Source: Spirochaetota bacterium (lineage in GTDB: Bacteria; Spirochaetota; UBA4802; JAFGDQ01). From it: a stretch of DNA of 64,000 nucleotides. Position 1 is the stretch's first letter, and each line of letters opens with the position of its first letter. The translations under genes and the position numbers were made by a program. Positions 11,145 to 29,820 of the stretch are shown here, one piece after another. Below the pieces are notes generated by a model that worked only from the letters and a program-made list of their open reading frames with translations, made no database searches and was not told the DNA's origin. The stretch spans positions 1-64,000 of the forward strand of contig JAZDKB010000004.1 of assembly GCA_043803405.1 (NCBI GenBank), written 5' to 3'.

Positions 11145-12755
11145 CTAGCCATGGCCTATTTTATGTTTCTGCAGCTTCTTCTCCTGCCTTATTTCCGTCA
11201 TCCGTGAAATCCTTTGCTGCAGAATGTCTTTTCCGGCACTCTTCATCCCGGGATCGCGGTAAGGCGCAGACTTAACATCAGCCTTCAGTTTGCCGATTTC
11301 TTCTTCGCTTAAAAGCGGAATAGCGGTTAACTTTGATGCAACCGTGCCCTCTCTCTTCTTTCCCACAGAAGGGCCCTTGCCAATAAGAAAGCATGCTTCG
11401 AGCATTGCCGACCGGATCTGGGGCGCGCTTGAGTAGGTGGTAAGCACTGCGTCAGCTTTCATTATCCTGTAAAGCTCTCCGAAAAATTCCAGTGACCATA
11501 GCTCCGGGTTCTTTGCAGGACTGAACGGGTCGTGGAACACAGCGTTAAAATAATCATCCTCTAAAGCGCTTATCGTTTTTCTCGCATCCCCGAAAAGCAT
11601 CTGTATGGAATACTTTCCAAAATCATTTTGCGCGCCTGTAAACGCTTTCTTTATATTCCCGTATATTTCGTCTTTATCGTCGTTAAAGGAAACGGAATTT
11701 ATGCCGGATAAAAACGAACTGTCTTTCTCAAGGGAAAAGACGTAAAGCTTCCGGTCTGTATTCTTTTTCAGAAACTCTATAACAAGCGCAAGTATGTTAT
11801 AACCTAAACCGAATCCTACATCCAGAACGCGCAATTCTGCGGAATTATTTTCCAGGATTTTTGAAGGATGAACATGCTTATAAAGCGCTTCATTATACGC
11901 GCCTGATAAAGAATGCATTGCCTGGTTATATTCGTCCGAATAGAGCGAATCTGTCCCGTCTTCGGTTTTGATAATATGAAACGACGGCTTATTATTTTTT
12001 GAACGGATTGAGTGCCGCAGCAGCAATGATCCGAGAATGAGGAATACAATGGATCCCCATTGTCCAGGCGTGAGCCCTAAATATGTTGCGTCAATGATGC
12101 GCAGAAAGTCGAGAGCAAAGCGCACGGGCGCGTAAAGGACGCACAATAACCCTAAATAAAATCCACCAGGCCGGTTTTTGTTTCGACCAAGCGCAAGGAA
12201 AAGGATGAGTACAGGTATAATGTAAAGGGCTTCCAGTAGCCCAAGGTTGTGGCGGACTATACCGTCCGAATACATCTGGCCGAGAAAAAATGAGGTCGGT
12301 ATTCCGGGATGATCGTAGGAAATAAAGCAGCCGGTGCGTCCAAGAAGCCAGCTGACCGGGAACACGTAAGCAGCAATGTCGAGATACTTCCAGCGTTCGC
12401 TTTCCAGCTTTCTCTGCCGGAAGAATATCATTGCTGCTGCCAAAGCTCCGATGAATCCACCGAACGAACTTATCCCGTCCCATAACCGCAACAGGCTAAG
12501 CGGATCGGCCAGTGTTTCAGCAGGGAAATATACTATACGGTCAAATAAATGCGAGGTCACCAGCACGCCTATCGCCAGCCACAGCACCATGTGTTCGGCT
12601 ACGGACGCGTCCAGGCCGAGCGCTATTGCACGGCGGCGTATCCTCAGGAAAAAAACAAATATGGCTGCGCCAACCAGCGCCCCGAAGCTGTAAATTGTTA
12701 CAGTCCCTATTTGCAGTACAGGCTGATCGAAATAAGGTATCATAATTTTACTCAT
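11145..12755 (-). CDS. Fusion of an Lgt-family membrane domain (about aa 1-250) and an MnmC/MnmD-type tRNA methyltransferase domain
   Basis: Lgt-like GISSFGG, GRTGCF, RHNLGLLE and RFALDFLR; MnmD-like TEDG..L....HS..GA, LDVGFGLGYN, HDPFSPAKNPELW and GKKREGT. Confidence 0.8.
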   Translation of the reverse strand: MSKIMIPYFDQPVLQIGTVTIYSFGALVGAAIFVFFLRIRRRAIALGLDASVAEHMVLWLAIGVLVTSHLFDRIVYFPAETLADPLSLLRLWDGISSFGGFIGALAAAMIFFRQRKLESERWKYLDIAAYVFPVSWLLGRTGCFISYDHPGIPTSFFLGQMYSDGIVRHNLGLLEALYIIPVLILFLALGRNKNRPGGFYLGLLCVLYAPVRFALDFLRIIDATYLGLTPGQWGSIVFLILGSLLLRHSIRSKNNKPSFHIIKTEDGTDSLYSDEYNQAMHSLSGAYNEALYKHVHPSKILENNSAELRVLDVGFGLGYNILALVIEFLKKNTDRKLYVFSLEKDSSFLSGINSVSFNDDKDEIYGNIKKAFTGAQNDFGKYSIQMLFGDARKTISALEDDYFNAVFHDPFSPAKNPELWSLEFFGELYRIMKADAVLTTYSSAPQIRSAMLEACFLIGKGPSVGKKREGTVASKLTAIPLLSEEEIGKLKADVKSAPYRDPGMKSAGKDILQQRISRMTEIRQEKKLQKHKIGHG

Positions 12756-17578: not shown

Positions 17579-18322
17579 ATGCTTAAAATGTTTTTATTGC
17601 AGTTAAAGTTTTTAACCACAATTCCATTGCCGGTTAAGATTGAGTTCGATGAAAATAAATTCGCAAAGGGTGTAATATTTTCTCCGGTAGTCGGACTCAT
17701 AATCGGCCTTATCCTTGGCGGGACATTTATCCTTGTTAATCTGGCCGGGAAGCAGATTATTGCCGTGGTCTCAGTAGTTTTTGTCGGGATAATAATTACA
17801 GGCGGGCTTCATCTGGACGGCCTTGCAGATACATTTGACGGAATCTTCAGCAACCAGCCGAAAGAAAAGATACTTAAGATAATGAAGGATTCCAGGATAG
17901 GAACGAACGGCACTCTTGCACTAATAATGGATGTGATATTCAGGATAAGCCTGCTTTATTCGTTAAGCGAGCAGAATATGTTCGCGTATTTATGCATTAC
18001 GCCTGTTATATCAAGAATGAGTATTGCGTGGACTGCAGGGCTGGCATCCGGCACAAGAAAGGGGAGCATGGCCGGCGCGCTGGTTAAGCATACAGGATAC
18101 AGGGAGATTATTATTGCATCAGCAATTACGGCTTTCCTGAGCATTGCGTTTATCAGACAATTAACCTTAGTTGTCATTCCGGCAGTAATTCTTTTTGCAG
18201 TAATTTGCGAAAGATACGCCGAGAAAAAAATCGGCTGCATCTCGGGGGACATCATAGGCGCGGTTATCGAGATGACGGAAATCACAGTGCTTTTTGCACT
18301 ATTTATTTATGAATTGTTTTAA
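17579..18322 (+). CDS. cobS: Adenosylcobinamide-GDP ribazoletransferase
   Basis: TGGLHLDGLADTFDG, IMKDSRIG and GDIIGA motifs. Confidence 0.95.
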   Translation: MLKMFLLQLKFLTTIPLPVKIEFDENKFAKGVIFSPVVGLIIGLILGGTFILVNLAGKQIIAVVSVVFVGIIITGGLHLDGLADTFDGIFSNQPKEKILKIMKDSRIGTNGTLALIMDVIFRISLLYSLSEQNMFAYLCITPVISRMSIAWTAGLASGTRKGSMAGALVKHTGYREIIIASAITAFLSIAFIRQLTLVVIPAVILFAVICERYAEKKIGCISGDIIGAVIEMTEITVLFALFIYELF

Positions 18323-18387
18323 CACAGGTGTATTACCGATATGCTGCCTGTACATATTTAATTTATATGATATCAAGGTGATACGGT

Positions 18388-18981
18388 ATGTTTGAAATCG
18401 TACTGATACGTCATGCCGAGACAGACAATAACACTATGCACAAATTCTCAGGTATAACCGATGTGGGCCTGAACGATAATGGAAGGCAGCAGGCATTAAA
18501 ACTGGCTGATGCTCTTAAAGATGAAATTATCGATCACATATTTTCCAGCGATATGCGCAGATGCGTTGAGACTGGCAACGGCCTCAGGTGCGCGAACGAA
18601 AGAATCTTCACAAAAGAACTCCGTGAGATGAATTTCGGCAGATGGGAAAACCTTACTTACAAAGAGATCAAAGAAAGGTATCCTGACGATATTGAAATGT
18701 GGGAGCGCGACTGGACGGATTACGAAATCCCGGAAGGCGAAAGCTTTACCCGAATGAGCGCAAGAGTGATAAAAGAATTTGAGGATATTGTAAAAGTTAA
18801 AAGCAACGGAGCAAAAAAAATTGCCGTTGTGTCGCACAGCGGATGCATAAGAACGATACTCGGCCATTACATAATCGGATCAATAAAAGACAGCTGGAGA
18901 TTCCGCGTTGAGAATGCCGCTGTTACGAGACTCTCTGTAGATAAAGGATACTATTTCTTAAAATCCCTTAATGAAAAATAA
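18388..18981 (+). CDS. cobC: Alpha-ribazole phosphatase (histidine phosphatase family)
   Basis: LIRHAET, LREMNFG.WE, PEGES and SHSG motifs; follows cobS. Confidence 0.85.
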   Translation: MFEIVLIRHAETDNNTMHKFSGITDVGLNDNGRQQALKLADALKDEIIDHIFSSDMRRCVETGNGLRCANERIFTKELREMNFGRWENLTYKEIKERYPDDIEMWERDWTDYEIPEGESFTRMSARVIKEFEDIVKVKSNGAKKIAVVSHSGCIRTILGHYIIGSIKDSWRFRVENAAVTRLSVDKGYYFLKSLNEK

Positions 18982-19121
18982 TATTCCGGTATTTATTTAT
19001 GGCCAGGTACATTTGGGTTTATTGAATTGTCATGCGGATGTAAAATTATATTACAATATATTATTGAAAAAAAGTCAGTGTTGACGGTATTGTTTGTTGA
19101 TTATATCAGGAGTAATTAACC

Positions 19122-19697
19122 ATGTTCAAATTTATTAGGGAAAAAATATTTATAGACGATGTGGTTTGCCCATGGTGGCTCGCATATACATTTGATAACC
19201 GCATTCGAAAGTTTTTTCATAATCCGGATAAAATGTTCAGTAAATATATCAGGAAAGGGATGACAGTGCTGGATATCGGTTGCGGGATGGGCTACTTCTC
19301 TATTGGGATGGCTGCGTTTGTAGGCGACAAAGGCAAAGTCATTGCTCTCGATATTCAGGAAAAAATGCTTGAGGTAATGAAGAAACGGGCTGAAAAAGCC
19401 GGCATGCTGAAGCGAATAACTCCGCATCTAAGCACAAAGAAAGATCTTAAACTAAAGAAAAAAGTCGATTTTGCATTAAGTTTCTGGATGGTGCACGAAG
19501 TACCGGACATAAATATTTTTTTAAAGAATGTTTACAATACATTAAATAAACATGGAAGATATTTTATCGCTGAGCCTAAAATGCACACGTCTGAAAAATA
19601 TTTCAGCAATCTCGAAAGCCTTTGCCTGGCGACAGGTTTTCGCATAATAGACCGTCCGGAAGTATCATTAAGCCGTGCTGTGCTTCTGGAGAGATAA
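19122..19697 (+). CDS. Class I SAM-dependent methyltransferase
   Basis: VLDIGCGMGYF; VCPWW N-terminal motif. Confidence 0.85.
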   Translation: MFKFIREKIFIDDVVCPWWLAYTFDNRIRKFFHNPDKMFSKYIRKGMTVLDIGCGMGYFSIGMAAFVGDKGKVIALDIQEKMLEVMKKRAEKAGMLKRITPHLSTKKDLKLKKKVDFALSFWMVHEVPDINIFLKNVYNTLNKHGRYFIAEPKMHTSEKYFSNLESLCLATGFRIIDRPEVSLSRAVLLER

Positions 19698-19698
19698 A

Positions 19699-20934
19699 TT
19701 AATACAGATACAGCGGATGAGAGTCCGGGTTCTTGCCGAAGAATGTGACATCATCAACAATCTTTATTTTTTCCCCGCGGAGAAGCGCGTATAGCGTGCG
19801 TTCTATGCCAATGCCTCCGCCGAAAGTATCCGGGAAAAGTTGCCCGCCGTCCCGGCCTTTCATTGAAGCAAACTGAAGAAACGGCCCATACCCTCCAAGG
19901 TCGTTGATATTTGCGATATTACCGTCTTCTATTATCGGCCGCGCCGGAAGGACCTTGTTGTCAAGTATCCTTTCAACTATCGGCTCATAAAGCCATTCTC
20001 TTATGGCGCCTGATAATATTTCTTTTGCAGTCGACTGCTTCCCGGTTTTTGCATCAATGCTTTTTGCAAGCATATCATAGTTAAATACATTCTGCGATTG
20101 CACTTTTAGCGGGTCGGCTTTTTTCCCTTCAGTGAATAAGTACGGATAGACCAGGTCATAGTTTTCCCTTAGAAGGCCGGTAATCCAGAAGAACTGCGAG
20201 TCTGTAGACTGTCCTGCTTTTTCTTCGTGACTTTTCTGGCCGTATTTTTTTACGCATTCGTCCTTTTGAAAGCTCGGGAAAGGTGTTTTGGGTATTTCTA
20301 TCACAATGCCAAGATCCTTCAAATTCTGTGAGTTGATTTTATTGATCTCCTCACATGCATAAACGAGCATCCTTTCAAAAAAGTTTTTTATCTTTGTCAT
20401 GTCTTCGTTAAGGATGTCGGTTACATATTTTACTTTGCTATAATATTCGTCAAGAGTGACGTTCCTGTTGCGCTTAAGTTCAATATCCATCTGAGAAAAA
20501 TCGGCGAGGTATTTCCCGCGCTGGGCGCCGGTGGGGCTTTCTATCTCGAGCCTGATGTTTGGCGAATCTACGAATATGCCTTTTATGCGCGGGTTTGAGC
20601 ATGCAAGAAATTTGCTGTAAATCATGCTGTGCGTTGTAAGGTATGTGTGTCCTTTGTAGTCGATGGACGGCGTGTGTTCAATGTCGTGAGCAAGCGGGTC
20701 TGTTATTATGCTGAGCATTACTTTTTCTAAATTAAACAGGCCTTCTTTAACAAGGAACTGGTTCATGGAATTAACAAAGGTTGTCCGGATTGCCATCGCA
20801 TTGTAAAGATCATCCGATATCCATTTGCCGGAGTAATTTGATTTTATGTAGTCTTCGAAGGTTTCCCCGCCTTCATTTATTGCAGCCTGAAATCTGTAAA
20901 GGCTTTCGCCGATTATTTTAATTTTATCTTCCAT
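19699..20934 (-). CDS. Class II aaRS paralog without an anticodon domain, archaeal-type asparagine synthetase (AS-AR)-like
   Basis: SIITDPL, THSMIYSK, SPNIRLE...FSQMDIE (motif 2), EILSGAIREW and GGGIGIER (motif 3) resemble archaeal AS-AR/AsnRS2. Confidence 0.75.
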   Translation of the reverse strand: MEDKIKIIGESLYRFQAAINEGGETFEDYIKSNYSGKWISDDLYNAMAIRTTFVNSMNQFLVKEGLFNLEKVMLSIITDPLAHDIEHTPSIDYKGHTYLTTHSMIYSKFLACSNPRIKGIFVDSPNIRLEIESPTGAQRGKYLADFSQMDIELKRNRNVTLDEYYSKVKYVTDILNEDMTKIKNFFERMLVYACEEINKINSQNLKDLGIVIEIPKTPFPSFQKDECVKKYGQKSHEEKAGQSTDSQFFWITGLLRENYDLVYPYLFTEGKKADPLKVQSQNVFNYDMLAKSIDAKTGKQSTAKEILSGAIREWLYEPIVERILDNKVLPARPIIEDGNIANINDLGGYGPFLQFASMKGRDGGQLFPDTFGGGIGIERTLYALLRGEKIKIVDDVTFFGKNPDSHPLYLY

Positions 20935-21153
20935 ATATTTATCCCGATAGATTGCTTTTTGTCCGGCACATAATATTTTTCTTCTGGAATAATGTCAAAT
21001 AAAAGAATGACTAAAATTTACAATACTGTAATATTTGTTGTTTATTTTATATTGAACTTTATTATTGTGTTTGTAAAAAATGCTAAAATTATCCCTAAAT
21101 AGCTCTTGATATTAAATCATTTTACATTTATGGCTTTGTAATATTATTAGAAC

Positions 21154-21198
21154 TCAATTTTTAGCACTATTAACCGTTAAAAATGAATGTGACAGTGT
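21154..21198 (+). repeat. 45-bp element also present at 33123-33167 (39/45 identical)
   Basis: Direct alignment by eye; internal TTTTTAG/YTAAAAA stem. Confidence 0.75.
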
Positions 21199-21265
21199 AT
21201 TTGCAATACTTATTTGTTAAATAAATATTCGTCTTATGTATAATATTTAAGGATTTCTTTATATA

Positions 21266-24157
21266 ATGAAAGATATTACCGAAAAAAATTCCCGTGAGAT
21301 TTTAAACCTTATAAACAACAGAGAAATTTCCTGTGAAGAGCTGATGAGGGCTACTCTTGATCAGATCGCCAAATATGATCCGATTCTCGAAGCGTTCATT
21401 TCCATGTATGATGAGTCTTTGCTGCTGGAGCAGGCGAGGTCTAGCGACAGAAGGCGCAGCAACGGATCTCCGCTTAGCCCGATTGACGGCATTCCGGTTG
21501 CAGTAAAGGATAATATGCATTCGATCGGCATTCCGACAACATGCGCTTCGAGGATACTCGAAAACTATAATCCGCCTTATGATTCAACTGCCGTGAGGCT
21601 GATAAAAGAAAGCGGCGGCATTATTGTCGGCAAAACGAACATGGATGAGTTCGCGATGGGATCGACATGCGAGACTTCGGCATTTAATCATACGCGTAAT
21701 CCGTGGGACATACATCGTGTGCCGGGAGGCTCATCCGGCGGCTCCGCAGTAGCTGTCGCGTCCGGTATGGTTCCGCTTGCGCTCGGGAGCGACACAGGCG
21801 GATCGATACGCCAGCCTGCCGCGTTCTGCGGGATAACCGGGCTTAAGCCGACATACGGGCTTGTGTCGCGCTACGGTCTTGCCGCGTACGCGTCTTCGCT
21901 TGACCAGATAGGGCCTATGTCGCGCGATGTTTACGGGAACGCGGCGCTTCTCGGCATTATAAGCGGCCATGACACGAAAGACTCCACTTCACTTGAAGCT
22001 GCAAAGGCCGGTTATACGGCAGAGCTTGACGGGAACATTAAGGGCGTTCGGGTTGCCGTAGTCCGGGAGCTTGCCGGCGAAGGGGTGTCGCGTCCGGTCC
22101 AGGAACAATTCTCCAAAGCAATAAAAACCATGGAAGGGCTGGGCGCTGCCGTGAGCGAGATTTCATTATCCTGCATAAAATATGTTATTTCTGCTTATTA
22201 CTTAATTGCGACTGCAGAGGCATGCTCCAATTTGTCGCGCTACGACGGAGTGAAGTACGGGTTCAGGAGCGGCAAGCAGAGCGACTTCCAGGAAATGCTT
22301 TTTACGACGCGCTCTTACGGGTTCGGCAAGGAAGTGAAGAAACGGATTTTGCTCGGAAATTTTGTGCTTTCATCCGGGTACTATGATGAGTATTACAGAA
22401 AGGCACTTAAAGTCAGGGCATTCATAAGAGAAGAAATGAAGGATGTTTTTAAATCGTTCGATGTGATCGTAATGCCGGCTGCTCCGGACATCGCGTTCCT
22501 TCACGGCGAGAGCCAGAGAGATGTCATGAAAATGTATCTTTCGGATATTACAACTGTACTCGCAAACCTGGCCGGGCTTCCGGCAATTTCTGTTCCGTGC
22601 GGCATTGCTTCCGGTATGCCGTCGGGCTTCCAGCTTATGGGAAGGCCCCTTGACGAGCAGACGCTTTTACGGATCGCATCCGCGTTCGAGGCCGGGCAGG
22701 AAAGGCATATTCCGGACCTTAAAAAGATTCTGGAAGCGCATGCGCATATTGTCGGCGCTGTAAGCAAAGACAACACTGAGGCCGCGACAGATGCGACGCA
22801 TGTTTATACTAAGGATAACATCAGAAAGATTTCGCATTTATATAATGCAAGGACGAAAACACTAACAGAACGCGTTTTCTGCAATGAGCTTGAAGCAATG
22901 GTAGGCAGGAATGTTTTGCTTGCAGGCTGGATACACAGAAAGAAAAACCTGGGTGGTATAGAGTTCTACGACCTCAGGGACAGGACAGGCTTTACCCAGC
23001 TTGTTATTGAAGGTGAAAAGCCTGTTGAGCGCATCACGGCAGAGAGCGTAGTTGAAGTAAGGGGCAAGGTGACAAAAGAGGAACGGAGCCCTTATGGAAA
23101 CATTGAAATAAAAGTAGAGAGCATTAATGTAATTACTCATGCTGAAAGCAGTATACCGGTAAGCATAAACAATCCGGCGGACAATGTGAACCTGTCGACC
23201 ATACTAGACAACAGAAATGTTTCAATCCGGAACCCCGGTATTTTGTCTGCGTTCAGGGTACAGTCCGAAATTGTGAAACTATTTGCCGAATACTTAAGGC
23301 AGCAGAGTTTCACTGAGATAAAAAGCCCCAAGATCATATCTTCCGGTACTGAAGGCGGCACGAATATTTTTGAAGTAAAATATTTCGACCGTGTTGCATA
23401 CCTGGCGCAATCGCCGCAATTTTATAAACAGATAATGGTAGGCAGCGGACTGGAAAGAGTGTTCGAGATTGGCCCTGTGTTCAGGGCAGAGCATCACGAC
23501 ACCATCAGGCATTTGAACGAATATATAAGCCTGGACTTTGAGATGGGATTCATACGCGATGAACAGGATGTCATTGACATGCAGGAAAACCTGATTAAAT
23601 ATATCTTCCAAAATATTAAAATTAAATTTAAGGATGATGTGAACATGCCTGCTTTGTTCCTGGAAGTGCCTGATAAAATTCCGCGCGTGCATTTCCTTGA
23701 AGCTATGGACATAGTGCAGTCGATGGGAGTCAGGGATATGGAAGAGGGCGATATTTCGCCTGCTGGCGAAAAGGCGCTCTGCGATTATTTTGAGAAAAAG
23801 AAGAATTCTTCTTTTGTATACGTGATCGGGTACCCTGTTAAAAAAAGACCCATGTACACAATGCCGGACGAACGGCTGCCCGGGTACACGAGGAGCTTCG
23901 ACCTTATTTACAGGGGGATAGAGATAACCACAGGCGGACAGCGTATCCATGACTATCACCAGTTAAGGGAAAATATCGTGGAGTTCGGTTTTAATCCGGG
24001 CGAGTACAGGGATTATCTTTCCATATTTAAATACGGAATGCCGCCTCACGGCGGGCTCGGCATGGGGCTGGAGCGGCTTACTATGAAGATATGCAATCTG
24101 AAAAATATTCGCGAGGCGTCATTGTTCCCGAGGGATATTAACAGGATTTCACCGTAG
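21266..24157 (+). CDS. gatA-aspS: GatA (about aa 1-476) fused through a ~58-aa linker to an archaeal-type non-discriminating aspartyl-tRNA synthetase (about aa 535-963)
   Basis: Amidase motifs [38 protein letters not shown] and SNLSRYDG; AspRS OB fold [35 protein letters not shown] and [15 protein letters not shown]. One open frame throughout. Confidence 0.93.
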
Positions 24158-24199
24158 GTAAATATTGATTGACGGATTTATTTTTAATGATTATTAAAA

Positions 24200-24472
24200 A
24201 TGATGCGATTCGAATGGGATAAATAAAAAGCAAAAGATAATCATACGAAACATCGTATATCTTTTGATGAAGCAGTTACAGTGTTTTATGATCCGTTATC
24301 GGCAACTTTTGATGATCCGGATCATTCAATTAATGAGCATAGATGGATAATTATAGGTTTTTCATCCCGTGGACGCCTGGTTGTAGTATCCTTTACCGAA
24401 AGAAGGGAAATAATTCGAATTATAAGCGCCCGTCCTGCGACGGCGCACGAAAGGAAACGACATGAAAATTAA
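24200..24472 (+). pseudogene. brnT: BrnT toxin with an in-frame TAA at codon 9 (24224-24226)
   Basis: Translates as MMRFEWDK*KAKDNHTKHRISFDEAVTVFYDP...DPDHS..EHRW..IG...IRIISARPAT..ERKRHE. Confidence 0.85.
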
Positions 24473-24722
24473 AGCAAAAAGGAATGTTGATGATTTACGG
24501 CCGGAGTATAATTTTGATTATTCAAAAGCTGTTCGCGGTAAATACGTAAAACGTTTACTGGATGAAGGGGCAAATGTTGTTGTGCTTGATCCGGATATAG
24601 CTAAGGCTTTCGGCAACTCGGCTGATGTAAATGACGCATTAAGATTGCTGCTTGATATTACAAGTTCAACACGCAGGATAACAATTCGTTCAAATATAAG
24701 CCATAATAAACGTCGTCGTTAA
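24462..24722 (+). CDS. brnA: BrnA-type antitoxin
   Basis: DLRPEYNFDYSKAVRGKY and VVLDPDIAKAF..S..VNDALR motifs; overlaps the brnT 3' end. Confidence 0.8.
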   Translation: MKIKAKRNVDDLRPEYNFDYSKAVRGKYVKRLLDEGANVVVLDPDIAKAFGNSADVNDALRLLLDITSSTRRITIRSNISHNKRRR

Positions 24723-24739
24723 TTAATATTTTGTCAGAG
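24676..24739 (+). other. Possible degenerate integron attC site
   Basis: TAACAATTCGTTCAA at 24679-24693 matches the start of the aadA-type attC as recalled; distal CGTTAAT and GTCAGAG sit at plausible L' and R' positions. Confidence 0.4.
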
Positions 24740-24788
24740 CTTGTACAAAATATAAAGCTGATCATGAAGAACTCCTGAACAATATATT

Positions 24789-26561
24789 ATGCTGAAAAAA
24801 CCAAAGATTAACATAGACAACCTGATCGAGCTTGCTTCGTTTGAAGTAAAGCCCGAAGAAAAACAGCAGTTCGTGAAAGAACTGGACGATTTTCTGGAAT
24901 ACGCCCGCGTAATAAACGAGGCATCTGTCGCGGATGTAAATCCCGCAAGCCATGCTGTGGACAGGAAAGCATATATGCGCGACGATACAAACAGCGCGTG
25001 GGATAAGCTTGACCTTTTACTCGGGAACGGGCCTGCTCTTCAGGGTACAAGCTACCTGGTGCCGCCGCAGGGAAGGAGCGGCGCAGGCACGGCTTCAGAA
25101 GAGAACGGGAACAGGGCCGCGGTTGCGGAAGCGGATTATGAGGCAGTGATCGGGCTCGAAGTGCACGCCCAGTTAAGAACGCGCACTAAGCTGTTCTGCG
25201 CATGTTCAACGCAGTTCGGCCGGGAGCCGAACGCGAACACGTGCCCCGTGTGCTCCGGGCATCCGGGCGTCCTGCCTGTGCTTAACAAAGAAGCAGTCAG
25301 CATGGCGATTCTCGCAGGGCTTGCGGCAGGATCAACTATAAACAAGCGTTCAGTCTTTGCGCGCAAGAATTATTTTTATCCCGACCTGCCGAAAGGCTAC
25401 CAGATATCCCAGTTCGAGGAACCCATCTGCTCCGGAGGGTTTATCGAGATAGAGATAAACGGTTCTGTAAAGAAAGTAAGGCTTAACCGCATACACATGG
25501 AAGAAGACGCCGGCAAGATGGTACACGTCGGTGCGCCCGGTATATGGGGATCGAAGGCGAGCGCCGTAGACTTTAACCGTTCGAGTGTGCCTCTCATAGA
25601 GATCGTAACAGAGCCGGACATGTCATCGGCCGAAGAAGCGCGCGAATACGTTGTAATGCTGCGCGCCATGCTTGTGTCGCTCGGGATATGCGACGGCAAC
25701 ATGGAAGAGGGAAGCCTGCGCTGCGACGCGAACGTTTCAATACGCCCAAAGGGAGCAAAGAAGCTCGGAACAAAGGTCGAGATTAAAAACATGAACTCGT
25801 TTAAGGCAATCGAAAGAGCTCTCGATTATGAAATCACACGGCTAAATAAAATGGTGAAGGCAGGCGCAAGAATAGGGCAGGAGACAAGGCTGTGGGACGA
25901 AAGCGGCCAGAAAACATATTCCATGAGGAGCAAAGAAGAATCGCACGACTACAGGTATTTCCCAGATCCCGATCTTTTGCCCATTGAACTAAGCGACGAA
26001 TGGATAGAAAAAGTCCGGGGAAAACTGACACATTCTCCGCTTACAAGAAAGCGTAAATATATTTCGGAATATTCTTTCTCAGGGAAGGAAGCGCGCCTCT
26101 TTATGATAAATCCTTCGTATGCAGATTTCTTTGAGGCTGTCCTTGCCGGTTATGATAATCCAAGGGCATTAGCGAACCTGTTTTTTACTGAGATATTGTC
26201 TTTAACCGGCAACATAGAAGAACTCAATATTAAGCCAGACGATCTGGCCATGCTTCTTAAAAAGATAGATTCCGGCGAGATCAGCGGTAAGATAGCAAAG
26301 AATGTTATCAAGAAAGCATTCTCTTCCGGTAAAGGACTGATCCAGATCATCGGTGAAGAGAACATAAAGCAGGAAACCGATCCTAAAGTAATTGAAGATA
26401 TAATAGATAAAATTATCGCCGACAATCAGTCCCAGGTCAATGATTACCGGAGCGGCAAGACAAAGATTTTCGGATTCTTTGTGGGCGAAGCAATGAAGGC
26501 AGCAAAAGGAAAGGCGAGCCCCGCGCTGGTAAATGAGATTTTGAAGAAGAAGCTCGGTTGA
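24789..26561 (+). CDS. gatC-gatB: GatC (about aa 1-94) fused through a Gly/Ala-rich linker to GatB (about aa 116-590)
   Basis: GatC-like N-terminus (LIELA...MRDD...LLGNGP...YLVP); GatB motifs VIGLEVHAQL, RKNYFYPDLPKGYQISQ, HMEEDAGK, LRCDANVS, YRYFPDPDL and FFVGEAMK. Confidence 0.93.
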   Translation: MLKKPKINIDNLIELASFEVKPEEKQQFVKELDDFLEYARVINEASVADVNPASHAVDRKAYMRDDTNSAWDKLDLLLGNGPALQGTSYLVPPQGRSGAGTASEENGNRAAVAEADYEAVIGLEVHAQLRTRTKLFCACSTQFGREPNANTCPVCSGHPGVLPVLNKEAVSMAILAGLAAGSTINKRSVFARKNYFYPDLPKGYQISQFEEPICSGGFIEIEINGSVKKVRLNRIHMEEDAGKMVHVGAPGIWGSKASAVDFNRSSVPLIEIVTEPDMSSAEEAREYVVMLRAMLVSLGICDGNMEEGSLRCDANVSIRPKGAKKLGTKVEIKNMNSFKAIERALDYEITRLNKMVKAGARIGQETRLWDESGQKTYSMRSKEESHDYRYFPDPDLLPIELSDEWIEKVRGKLTHSPLTRKRKYISEYSFSGKEARLFMINPSYADFFEAVLAGYDNPRALANLFFTEILSLTGNIEELNIKPDDLAMLLKKIDSGEISGKIAKNVIKKAFSSGKGLIQIIGEENIKQETDPKVIEDIIDKIIADNQSQVNDYRSGKTKIFGFFVGEAMKAAKGKASPALVNEILKKKLG

Positions 26562-26580
26562 TATATTTTGCCGTTCGCAG

Positions 26581-27102
26581 TTATTTCAATTTTTTTACTT
26601 CCGGTTTTTTGTCCTTTAATACAAATGCCGGTTTTATTGATTCGATTTTGCCAGCCAGGTCTTCCTTAAATATCCTGTAAACAAGAACAGCTGAATAATT
26701 TTCCTTATAATATTCGAAAGCGATCTGTCCGTATCGAAGGAATTCCCGCATCTCCTGTATCAGGTTCTTTTTTATTTCGTCGGAATTCTGAATGTCATTC
26801 GCATTCTTAATGTTTGATAGTTTGTAATTATAATTAAGATTATACTTTATAAGGTTAGTGATTACTTTGTTGTCCATCTCCGCTTTTGCGTTTTTAAGCG
26901 CACTCTCACGCGAAGCTACGAGCCCTCTAGCCTCTTTATCCGGCATCCCTGTAATGATCACCTGGTAATGATCCCTGTCGAGAAAACCTTCGGTAGTGTA
27001 ATCGTTTAAAAGCCTGTTGGTATCGTAATATTTTATTGTGCAGTTAAGAGATGCTGAAAGAATAACTGCAGCGAAAAGAAGCATTGTATAAAAATATTTC
27101 AT
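26581..27102 (-). CDS. Hypothetical lipoprotein
   Basis: Hydrophobic signal ending SLNC; TEGFLDRDHYQVIITG motif. Confidence 0.65.
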   Translation of the reverse strand: MKYFYTMLLFAAVILSASLNCTIKYYDTNRLLNDYTTEGFLDRDHYQVIITGMPDKEARGLVASRESALKNAKAEMDNKVITNLIKYNLNYNYKLSNIKNANDIQNSDEIKKNLIQEMREFLRYGQIAFEYYKENYSAVLVYRIFKEDLAGKIESIKPAFVLKDKKPEVKKLK

Positions 27103-27126
27103 ATTGTAATTTCCATTGACCTAATC

Positions 27127-27356
27127 TCTCCCTCTCCTTTCGGGCTGACTTCTACTCACATTTTTATTATTAACAAATATTTTGCCGTCTCGGCCCCCTA
27201 TCCCCCGGCGGGGGCACCGGCTTGGAATAAAACAACCAAATATTACTTCATTATTTTTCCCGATCTTGCCCCCTTTGGGGGTTAGGGGGCTGGGAGCATA
27301 CCCGATTTACAACTAAAATAATCAGCATGAGACAGCCCTGGGCCGGGGGTGAGGGC
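27127..27356. repeat. Nested palindromic repeat cluster
   Basis: Inverted 24-bp units GCCCCCTAWCCCCC-NNN-GGGGGCA at 27193-27216 and 27267-27290, inside GGGCTG...CAGCCC ends (27142/27338), inside CCCTCTCC...GGGGTGAGGG. Confidence 0.65.
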
Positions 27357-27420
27357 ATAAGGAGCTACCTTCTCCGCAATAATTTAAGTATTAATGACGA
27401 TATGTTTATTCTGCCCGCCC

Positions 27421-29820
27421 TTATTTCCCCTTCAGCATATTAATTATATCCTGAACCTTGTCGCGGTTTGCGTGATCGGGTTTCAGGGATAACAGCTTTT
27501 CATAATTGTAAACCGCTTTGTCCTTATCCTTTAAATTCCTGTAATAAATAGTACCGAGTTCCTCATAAGCTTCCCAGTACCTGCTTTCAATCTTGGTAGC
27601 TCTTTCGAACGATTTTACCGCGTCACTATACATTTGCTTGTCCCTGTATGTCAATCCCAGAAAAAAATGCGCCTTTGCGTCAACGGGATTAATATTGAGA
27701 GATGTGTTGTATTCTTCCACAGCTTCATCGTACATTTTGGTTTCCCTGAAAGCTTTGGCAAGATTAAAATGAGCATCGAAGGATTTAGGGTCATTCTGCG
27801 TGGCGCTTTTATATTGTTGAATGGCCTTATCATTAAGGCCGTTGTTGAGGTAAAGATTACCCAGGTTAATATAGGCTTTCGTGTAATGAGGATTTGCTGT
27901 TATCGATTTCTGATAAAAGGCAATTGCCTTATCCTGGTTGTTGCTCGCTTCGTAAGTCTTTCCAAGTTCGTATAATGTAGGCGCATCATCTGCCTTTAGT
28001 TCCAGAGCCCTGTTGAACAGGCCTACAGCTTCGGTATAATTTTTCTGTATCGACTGGATAAGCCCCAGGTTGAAATACGCCTGGAAATACTCGCGGTCCA
28101 GCTCAATTGCTTTCTGATAGAACTGAGATGCGTTGTTATATGACTTCATCTCGTGATATGTTTCCGCAACTTTAAAAACAGTGTCAGGATTATCCGGTCT
28201 CAGCTTTAAATCTTCAGTAAAATGGCTGAGCGCTTCGTTGTAATTTTTACTTTTTAAATAAATATCTCCGAGATTAAAGTGCGCCCTGTCAAGTTTCGGA
28301 TCCTGTTGCAGCGATGTGTTCAGATCCTTGATCGCCTGCCTGTTATCGTTAAGCTTAATGTTTGCAAGCCCTCTTGAATAGTATGCCTTCGGGAAAACAG
28401 GCTGCTCCTTAACCGCCCTGTCGAACGCCTTTACCGCTTCGCCGTATTTGCTTTCCACATAATAGAGGAGCCCCAGCCTGTAAAATGCATCCGCGTTTTT
28501 CGGGTTAGCAATGATCGCGCTCTGATACGATTTTTTTGCTTCATCGGTTATCCCGCCATGGTCGTATATTCTACCGCGCCAGTAATGGGAATGGTCGTCG
28601 TTGCTGTCTATATCCACAGCTTTCTTGTAAGCGTTAAGCGCTGCATCGTATTTCTTTTCTGCTCTGAGCTTGTCGCCAAGCTCTCTCCATTTCGTAGCTT
28701 CGGACTTGTCATCCTTAGGAGGCTTTGGCGGGATCTTGGGCCCTGTATCGTCTGTAAGGTCGTCCTTTTTAGGAAGCTGCTTATCAACCTTGGGCAGCTT
28801 ATTTTCGGGCGGAGCAACTTTATCCGTTTCCGGCAGCGCGGGTTTGTCATTCACTGCAACTTTGTTAGCGCTGTTCAGCATTTTTAACGCAAGCGCGTAT
28901 TTGTCGCGCAGATTTTTATCCTTGCTGTTGTAGCCCAGAGCCTTTCTGTAATAGTCAGCAGCCTTTGCCCAGTCGCCAAGCTTTGCGTAAACATCGCCCA
29001 GCCTTTCGAGAGCTGCCGCATCATTCGGATCCACTTTAAGCGCTTTTTCAAAAGAAGCGATCGCGTCGTCGGTTTTATCCATCCTTAAGTTTGCATTACC
29101 CTGACCCACGTAATATTTTGACTTATTAGGATTTAAGGCAATGGCTTTATCAAAGGCCTGTTTTGCTTTATTAAATTCGCCTGTCTCCATATATACGCGG
29201 CCAAGATTATAATAGCCTTCCGGATCTTTCGGGTTCGCCTTAATCCCTTCCATGATAATAGCAACAGCCCCTTTCTTGTCCCCTTTTCTTAAGCGTTGTT
29301 TTGCTATGTTCCAGTAGCTCTCCGGATCTCTAGGAGCTAACTTTCTTGCTTTATTATATTCATCAAGCGCCTTCTTTAACTTTTCCTGATCGTCGAATAC
29401 ATTGCCTAGCCTGTTATATGCCTTCGGGTATTTGGGAAAATATTTTTTTGCAAGCTCAAGCGTGGCGATCGCATTATCATAGTCGCCTTTCAGGGCGTAC
29501 GCGTGCCCAAGCTCGTTCAATGCCTCGTAGTTCTGCGGATCGATCGCAAGCGCCTTTTTAAAGTACTCAATTGCTTTGTCAAGGTCGCCCATGTCCTTAT
29601 AAAGGCTGCCTATCTTGACCAGTATGCCGGTATTCCTCGGATCAGTCTCCAGGATCTTTTTATAAAGCTCAATCTGTTGCAGTCGCAGGTCCCGTATGTC
29701 GCCTGTGCTGTCTCCGGTGCCGCCTCTGAAAAGAAAATATCCGCCTCCCAGAAGAAGAGCCAGAATAAGCACCCCGGCAGCTCCCCATTTAAGTCCTTTA
29801 TATCTGTCGTAGTATGTCAT
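27421..29820 (-). CDS. Membrane-anchored multi-TPR protein
   Basis: N-terminal TM helix; two long TPR arrays separated by a Pro/Lys-rich linker. Confidence 0.85.
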   Translation of the reverse strand: MTYYDRYKGLKWGAAGVLILALLLGGGYFLFRGGTGDSTGDIRDLRLQQIELYKKILETDPRNTGILVKIGSLYKDMGDLDKAIEYFKKALAIDPQNYEALNELGHAYALKGDYDNAIATLELAKKYFPKYPKAYNRLGNVFDDQEKLKKALDEYNKARKLAPRDPESYWNIAKQRLRKGDKKGAVAIIMEGIKANPKDPEGYYNLGRVYMETGEFNKAKQAFDKAIALNPNKSKYYVGQGNANLRMDKTDDAIASFEKALKVDPNDAAALERLGDVYAKLGDWAKAADYYRKALGYNSKDKNLRDKYALALKMLNSANKVAVNDKPALPETDKVAPPENKLPKVDKQLPKKDDLTDDTGPKIPPKPPKDDKSEATKWRELGDKLRAEKKYDAALNAYKKAVDIDSNDDHSHYWRGRIYDHGGITDEAKKSYQSAIIANPKNADAFYRLGLLYYVESKYGEAVKAFDRAVKEQPVFPKAYYSRGLANIKLNDNRQAIKDLNTSLQQDPKLDRAHFNLGDIYLKSKNYNEALSHFTEDLKLRPDNPDTVFKVAETYHEMKSYNNASQFYQKAIELDREYFQAYFNLGLIQSIQKNYTEAVGLFNRALELKADDAPTLYELGKTYEASNNQDKAIAFYQKSITANPHYTKAYINLGNLYLNNGLNDKAIQQYKSATQNDPKSFDAHFNLAKAFRETKMYDEAVEEYNTSLNINPVDAKAHFFLGLTYRDKQMYSDAVKSFERATKIESRYWEAYEELGTIYYRNLKDKDKAVYNYEKLLSLKPDHANRDKVQDIINMLKGK

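Follow-up and report, generated by a model that had tools for sequence, protein, structure and literature searches.

When a synthetase of the type that may put aspartate on tRNA(Asn) is encoded in one frame with GatA, it can be asked whether the product is an evolved part of the tRNA-dependent route to asparagine, the result of a simple lost stop codon, or an error of assembly. This question is raised by a gene in a 64,000-nucleotide stretch of DNA from a Spirochaetota bacterium (the window, by which the whole analysed stretch is meant).

The GatA–AspRS gene and its linker

The reading frame is, as judged from its sequence, an intact GatA joined to an archaeal-type AspRS (Table 1). Pfam matches to the amidase, OB-fold and class II core domains lie at aa 25–468, 550–623 and 644–957, respectively. 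The GatA model TIGR00132 gives 591.5 bits over aa 14–476 (cut-off 481.1), and the predicted structure of this half matches solved GatA chains with a target TM of 0.94–0.96. The triad motifs, which the original prediction had described as intact, are indeed found at the expected places (VKDN from aa 80, GGSSGGS from aa 154 and GSDTGGSIR from aa 174). The same prediction had called the synthetase half archaeal-type and devoid of the bacterial GAD insertion, and this is borne out by 549.5 bits for PRK05159 over aa 535–963 (cut-off 353), whereas the bacterial aspS profile matches in two pieces and below its cut-off, as expected from a missing GAD insert.

Table 1 Features of the locus, in positions of the window
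Feature	Position	Strand	Remarks
Divergent archaeal-type AsnA-like gene	19699..20934	-	411 aa; putative function, below family cut-off
GatA–AspRS fusion gene	21266..24157	+	963 aa, no internal stop; domain and family profile matches
GatA glutaminase half	21266..22735	+	aa 1 to ~490; triad K81/S156/S180 intact
Variable linker, probably disordered	22736..22801	+	aa 491–512; low conservation, low pLDDT, high pN
Conserved fusion-specific helix	22802..22855	+	aa 513–530; alignment consensus and model
Archaeal-type AspRS	22868..24157	+	aa 535–963; profile match, structure alignment
AspRS signature codons	His557, 22934–22936; Pro609, 23090–23092	+	
BrnT-type toxin pseudogene (stop at codon 9) and probable antitoxin ORF	24200..24722	+	between the two fusion genes
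GatC–GatB fusion gene	24789..26561	+	590 aa; GatC 1–94, disordered linker ~95–113, GatB 115–590
Trp-containing GatB loop	25524..25565	+	aa 246–259; near-invariant, fusion-clade-specific

In archaeal-type AspRSs, His and Pro at two signature positions of the anticodon domain mark non-discriminating enzymes, and Trp and Lys mark discriminating ones. The predicted His557 (in GWIH, from aa 554) and Pro609 (in ERSPYG, from aa 606) are both present, and the proposed check of residue equivalence paired them with the signature H and P of 1N9W, which is T. thermophilus AspRS2 and is labelled a non-discriminating archaeal-type AspRS2, as well as with those of 1WYD. They align with W and K of 3NEL/1B8A, which we take to be the discriminating T. 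kodakarensis enzyme. Among solved structures, the AspRS half is matched best by 1N9W/3KFU. Furthermore, the genome's tRNA(Asn), with U1–A72, and tRNA(Asp), with G1–C72 and an extra D-loop U, match the determinants given for these tRNAs in PMC9976931. A non-discriminating type, which would charge tRNA(Asn), is supported for the AspRS half. In the open literature, no paper was found that states the functional role of the His/Pro residues. The PRK05159 match is not a discriminating label, since free paralogues with Gln at the His position pass it too. In an alignment of the query with 67 full-length homologues (68 rows, 7 partial ones being left out), the signature is not absolute: His occurs in 60 rows, with Tyr in the other eight, and Pro likewise in 60, being absent in eight. 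The AspRS motif residues R740, E742, R893 and R937 are found in 68/68 rows, and the K, S and S of the GatA triad in 67, 68 and 67, respectively.

A linker of about 58 aa had been proposed between the two halves. A linker exists, of a length closer to 45 aa (about aa 490–534), because many free GatA proteins align to about aa 481–489. Its stretch 491–512 is poorly conserved, has a pLDDT below 50 at 497–513 in the model, and shows the highest pN in 5/7 pairs. The conserved segment that follows contains a predicted helix (aa 516–527), of which no counterpart was seen by eye before 78 free archaeal-type AspRS frames; the apparent starts of these frames lie near the position of Arg536. The span aa 475–536 measures 55–69 residues, and 59–64 in 62/68 rows. 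Thus, the suggested comparison of linkers between homologues revealed a conserved length and a constrained helical segment. An internal start yielding free AspRS was considered and rejected: a Shine-Dalgarno-like start occurs in the linker region of 1/21 genes, with no position in common, and the only nearby internal starts of this genome, at aa 545 and 551, fall within the AspRS core.

A GatC–GatB fusion gene next door

The original reading was incomplete in that it overlooked a second fusion gene adjacent to the first, so that the whole Asn-transamidosome would consist of two chains. In the second gene product, the GatC Pfam domain is found at aa 21–91 (33.4 against a threshold of 23), the GatC model TIGR00135 gives 38.1, under its cut-off of 47.1, and the GatB model TIGR00133 gives 556.8 against 314.8 bits. 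The structure model contains the GatC helices, a disordered linker (95–111) and GatB, and the motif columns are invariant in the alignment. The fused GatA, GatC and GatB are the only GatA/GatB/GatC matches in the genome, and GatCAB is here not made of three separate chains, as GatC is joined to GatB and GatA to AspRS. The GatC part is covered by 78 of the 120 GatC–GatB matches listed, the window's own included.

The 14-residue Trp-containing loop of GatB fits one pattern in 77/78 fused rows, and is found in 0/21 free GatB proteins of the order and at 0/22 outsider loci. It also occurs in 3/42 short database rows, which look like truncated members of the clade. A GatC–GatB fusion outside the clade, P0201, lacks the conserved loop and is probably an independent fusion.

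When GatA plus its linker (aa 1–545) and GatC–GatB (aa 1–430) were modelled as a complex, an ipSAE of 0.94 was obtained (best control 0.01), with a contact agreement of at least 97% and a partner pLDDT of 84; the score may reflect likeness to solved GatCAB, and the mark applied is reached by 116/157 solved pairs and 2/215 mismatched pairs. The model suggests that fusion does not prevent GatC from wrapping GatA. The linker helix is absent from the interface residues named for this model, and a docking role for this helix and for the GatB loop may be envisaged.

Regarding the surroundings, the antitoxin ORF between the two fusion genes has no Pfam hit and owes its label to its position; relatives have a shorter gap between these genes. 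No Rfam match for a T-box or other RNA control was found at E up to 1 in window positions 18000–28000, and promoter and terminator counts were no higher than shuffle level. Elsewhere in the window (11145–12755, minus strand), an ORF resembles, by eye, an Lgt-type membrane domain together with an MnmD-like methyltransferase domain.

Distribution, origin and genome context

All three Pfam domains occur in 73 of the 120 homologues listed, and the fusion is not a sequencing artefact. The named carriers among those listed are Spirochaetota metagenome-assembled genomes, one partial Chrysiogenales record, and Ca. Uabimicrobium amorphum, in which the fusion is intact in a complete genome record under the UniRef name 'Multifunctional fusion protein' only. 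Within the class, the archaeal-type AspRS is present in 23/121 genomes, in 22 of them in one frame with GatA; in the remaining one GatA–AspRS is split across two overlapping contigs, and all 23 count as fused. Full-length GatC–GatB accompanies it in 21 of these, the other two being an N-gap and a contig end. In a sample of 401 from the phylum, 32 hits were obtained, 13 of them in three families outside the class; in 7/13 of these genomes GatC–GatB is not adjacent to GatA–AspRS. Both halves are under purifying selection, with pN far below pS in 7/7 pairs.

Several candidates for other architectures were dismissed. An apparent GatA–AspRS–GatC triple fusion in one genome (G040) is an N-gap in the assembly, and no four-domain single chain was found among the 120 homologues listed. 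No independent family of GatA–AspRS fusions was found within the best 150 of the 50% representatives; P0345 proved to be a tandem eukaryote-like AspRS, and P0313 is a GatA protein whose tail is of low complexity.

Trees were quick, unrooted and made on subsets of rows. In these, the fused AspRS rows form a single clade (20/20, SH-aLRT 100), with free spirochaete archaeal-type AspRSs as its sister (SH-aLRT 89), which points to one origin of the GatA–AspRS fusion. The fused GatA and GatB are separate from the free GatA and GatB of the order, which form clades of their own (100). Since the fusion label needs 6 changes, in two separate parts, on a tree of the housekeeping AspRS (89 rows), the cassette either moved horizontally or represents an ancestral second copy that was lost many times; the trees would fit both.

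The original reading also overlooked that the genome has direct routes. It is 94% complete and encodes a bacterial AspRS, AsnRS, GlnRS, GluRS, an AsnB homologue and, in divergent orientation upstream of the first fusion gene, an AsnA-like gene. The 23 fusion genomes of the class have AsnRS in 21, GlnRS in 21 and bacterial AspRS in 22. The AsnA-like protein scores 128.7 bits with the archaeal AsnA model PRK06462, below its cut-off of 309; its best solved matches are 1NNH (E 3.5e-14) and 3P8T (E 6.4e-13). It is conserved at 69–84% identity across 34/121 class genomes, where it adjoins asnS in 25/34, and it is found in 19/23 fusion genomes of the class (interrupted in one) versus 15/98 others. 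Its presence in all 4 checked genomes without a GatB hit (G071, G032, G018 and G055) fits the predicted role of an asparagine synthetase. In G160 (L318:4240-10439), asnS immediately precedes the cassette in the same orientation, so that both routes, direct and indirect, may be encoded in one operon.

In G071, a genome of the same genus, the flanking genes are 340 bp apart at the syntenic site, with no N in between, and no GatB is detected. The cassette thus appears dispensable in that organism, and for this reason it looks auxiliary. A clue to its use comes from GlnRS. A second, free GatB is present in 7/10 fusion genomes without detectable GlnRS versus 0/26 with it, a contrast in which class and outside genomes are pooled and in which the genomes are incomplete and related, so that the counts are not independent. 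Outside the class, GlnRS occurs in 5/13 fusion genomes, each with one GatB, and 8/13 lack a GlnRS hit, of which 7/8 have a second GatB; free GatA was found in 5/5 tested. Three second GatBs that were inspected are unfused, without the Trp loop, and in a separate clade. The contrast repeats in two families (G254 versus five relatives; G171 versus G198 and G212), and the exceptions are three genomes of 86–92% completeness (G094, G037 and G248), which have no GlnRS hit and the fused GatB alone. Because the second free GatB tracks the missing GlnRS, it is suggested that the fused enzyme is reserved for Asn.

A division of labour by a discriminating housekeeping AspRS in fusion genomes and a non-discriminating one in relatives was also considered, and no pattern emerged: at the diagnostic position, where His or Leu presumably marks discrimination, Leu is found in 22/22 fusion rows, in 57/64 rows with free GatCAB and in 4/4 without Gat. 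At five outside loci (L331, L334, L338, L341 and L343), a second archaeal-type AspRS is encoded as a free protein; it has Gln in place of the signature His, its loop is longer by four residues, and it is probably the discriminating housekeeping enzyme of those families. A LysRS of ~700 aa with a ~200-aa C-terminal extension occurs at L327, L330, L333, L337 and L340 (families f9, f23 and f38). In one fusion homologue (L314:7422-10229 of G198, a genome 87% complete, and protein P0070), the GatA triad motifs are lost and the AspRS half is intact; no AsnRS was detected in G198, and besides the fusion this genome carries a second, free GatA that passes the cut-off.

Explanations and known systems

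We consider it likely that the two genes encode a natural, covalently tethered two-chain Asn-transamidosome, reserved for Asn and serving an auxiliary, glutamine-driven route. Its activity, stoichiometry, dedication and physiological role may be pictured as follows. GatA–AspRS would bind GatC–GatB by way of the usual interface among GatA, GatC and GatB. Since AspRS normally dimerises, (GatA–AspRS)2(GatC–GatB)2 is the likely particle. Judging from family knowledge, the AspRS half would put Asp on tRNA(Asn), after which the tRNA 3' end would move to GatB, where phosphorylation and then amidation would take place with ammonia that GatA frees from glutamine; the catalytic steps are those of established GatCAB chemistry (PMC2330236). 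The tether would make assembly independent of tRNA and keep the amidotransferase for Asn. The route would operate alongside AsnRS and the ammonia-type AsnA-like enzyme, while tRNA(Asp) would be charged by the separate AspRS, and Gln-tRNA would come from GlnRS or from a second, free GatCAB. It may be speculated that the complex provides Asn-tRNA at the expense of glutamine under ammonia levels that do not suffice for the AsnA-like enzyme.

The fusions could also be tolerated products of operon compaction, which would serve co-expression and stoichiometry, with domains that work as free ones, exchange of tRNA in trans, and neither channelling nor dedication. The variable, disordered centre of the linker agrees with this, the second fusion in the same operon suggests a general fusing tendency, P0201 is an apparently independent GatC–GatB fusion, and a laboratory gatC–gatA fusion in M. 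smegmatis is viable, if more error-prone (PMC7541841). However, against compaction stand the 55–69-residue span, the constraint on a fusion-specific helix, the near-invariance of the GatB loop in the fusion clade alone, and the retention of a second GatCAB mainly where GlnRS is missing, and we regard it as unlikely. The claim of an evolved fusion rather than a simple lost stop codon is upheld by a conserved, monophyletic protein under purifying selection, with its linker length kept and without a conserved internal start.

If the AspRS half were specific for tRNA(Asn), the particle would amount to an AsnRS in which Asn is built in place, and it would never charge tRNA(Asp). This would agree with the separate bacterial-type AspRS in 22/23 class genomes and with the free archaeal-type paralogue in the 5 outside genomes aligned, but the anticodon-domain residues are of the ordinary dual-specificity His/Pro type, and T. 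thermophilus also has two AspRSs, of which AspRS2 is still non-discriminating (PMC4206432); a specialised enzyme is therefore rather improbable. That the genes are an artefact of assembly or gene calling, or that the cassette is decaying, is hardly credible: redundancy with AsnRS, the empty syntenic site in G071 and the loss of the triad in one homologue could be taken that way, but the cassette is intact in dozens of independent assemblies and in the complete Ca. Uabimicrobium amorphum record, and purifying selection acts on it.

Beyond the two-chain, Asn-reserved transamidosome that we favour, a bolder scenario can be sketched, about which we are rather doubtful. It pictures a mobile, single-origin, permanently assembled Asn-tRNA machine, in which the helix and the GatB loop would lock synthetase to amidotransferase without tRNA and exclude the Gln pathway. 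The machine would have been passed among Spirochaetota families and have reached a planctomycete, displacing native gatCAB wherever GlnRS made it dispensable, and in one lineage a GatA without catalytic activity would be retained solely as a tether.

This chemistry is known, and the novelty to which the gene structure points lies in the architecture of an established pathway. Neither natural fusion was found described in the open literature; a survey of aminoacyl-tRNA synthetase domains published elsewhere could mention the fusion. The Asn-transamidosomes of T. thermophilus and M. tuberculosis need tRNA for assembly, and that of H. pylori relies on a helper protein (PMC2943598; PMC8406222). 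It was proposed that a stable complex is affordable only for single-purpose amidotransferases, and that dual-function GatCAB must stay loosely bound (PMC3241645); retention of a second GatCAB mainly where GlnRS is missing is what this proposal predicts. A natural covalent version tests the single-purpose idea and the role of channelling directly, and a two-chain complex is a ready-made stable particle for structural work. As to the combination of routes, genomes with AsnA were described in 2008 to use AsnRS rather than GatCAB (PMC2330236). A 2014 count (PMC4206432) gives AsnA, AsnRS, GlnRS and GatCAB together in 8/547 genera, and their coexistence is thus uncommon, not unprecedented.

Among known systems, unfused aspS2–gatCAB neighbourhoods in Clostridia and Treponema/Spirochaetaceae likewise have an archaeal-type AspRS near gatA and gatB, but as separate genes, without the linker helix and without the Trp loop in GatB, and the fused GatA and GatB have their closest relatives elsewhere. 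The M. smegmatis gatC–gatA mutant is also a fusion within GatCAB; it differs in being a selected mutation that raises mistranslation, in joining C to A instead of C to B, and in involving no synthetase (PMC7541841). The T. thermophilus Asn-transamidosome (PDB 3KFU, 1N9W) has the same four components, since it combines an archaeal-type non-discriminating AspRS2 with GatCAB and tRNA(Asn), and, like this genome, T. thermophilus keeps it beside AsnRS, GlnRS and a second AspRS (PMC4206432). In Thermus, however, four separate chains assemble only on tRNA(Asn) (PMC2943598; PMC3241645), whereas two chains are encoded here, and Thermus is described in PMC2330236 as having neither AsnA nor AsnB, in contrast to the AsnA-like gene and AsnB homologue of this genome. 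The nearest precedent is the engineered T. maritima GatC–linker–GluRS2 protein (PDB 3AL0, chain C), in which a tRNA synthetase is likewise covalently tethered to a subunit of an amidotransferase; it differs in being man-made for crystallography, in belonging to the Gln pathway, and in being joined via GatC instead of GatA.
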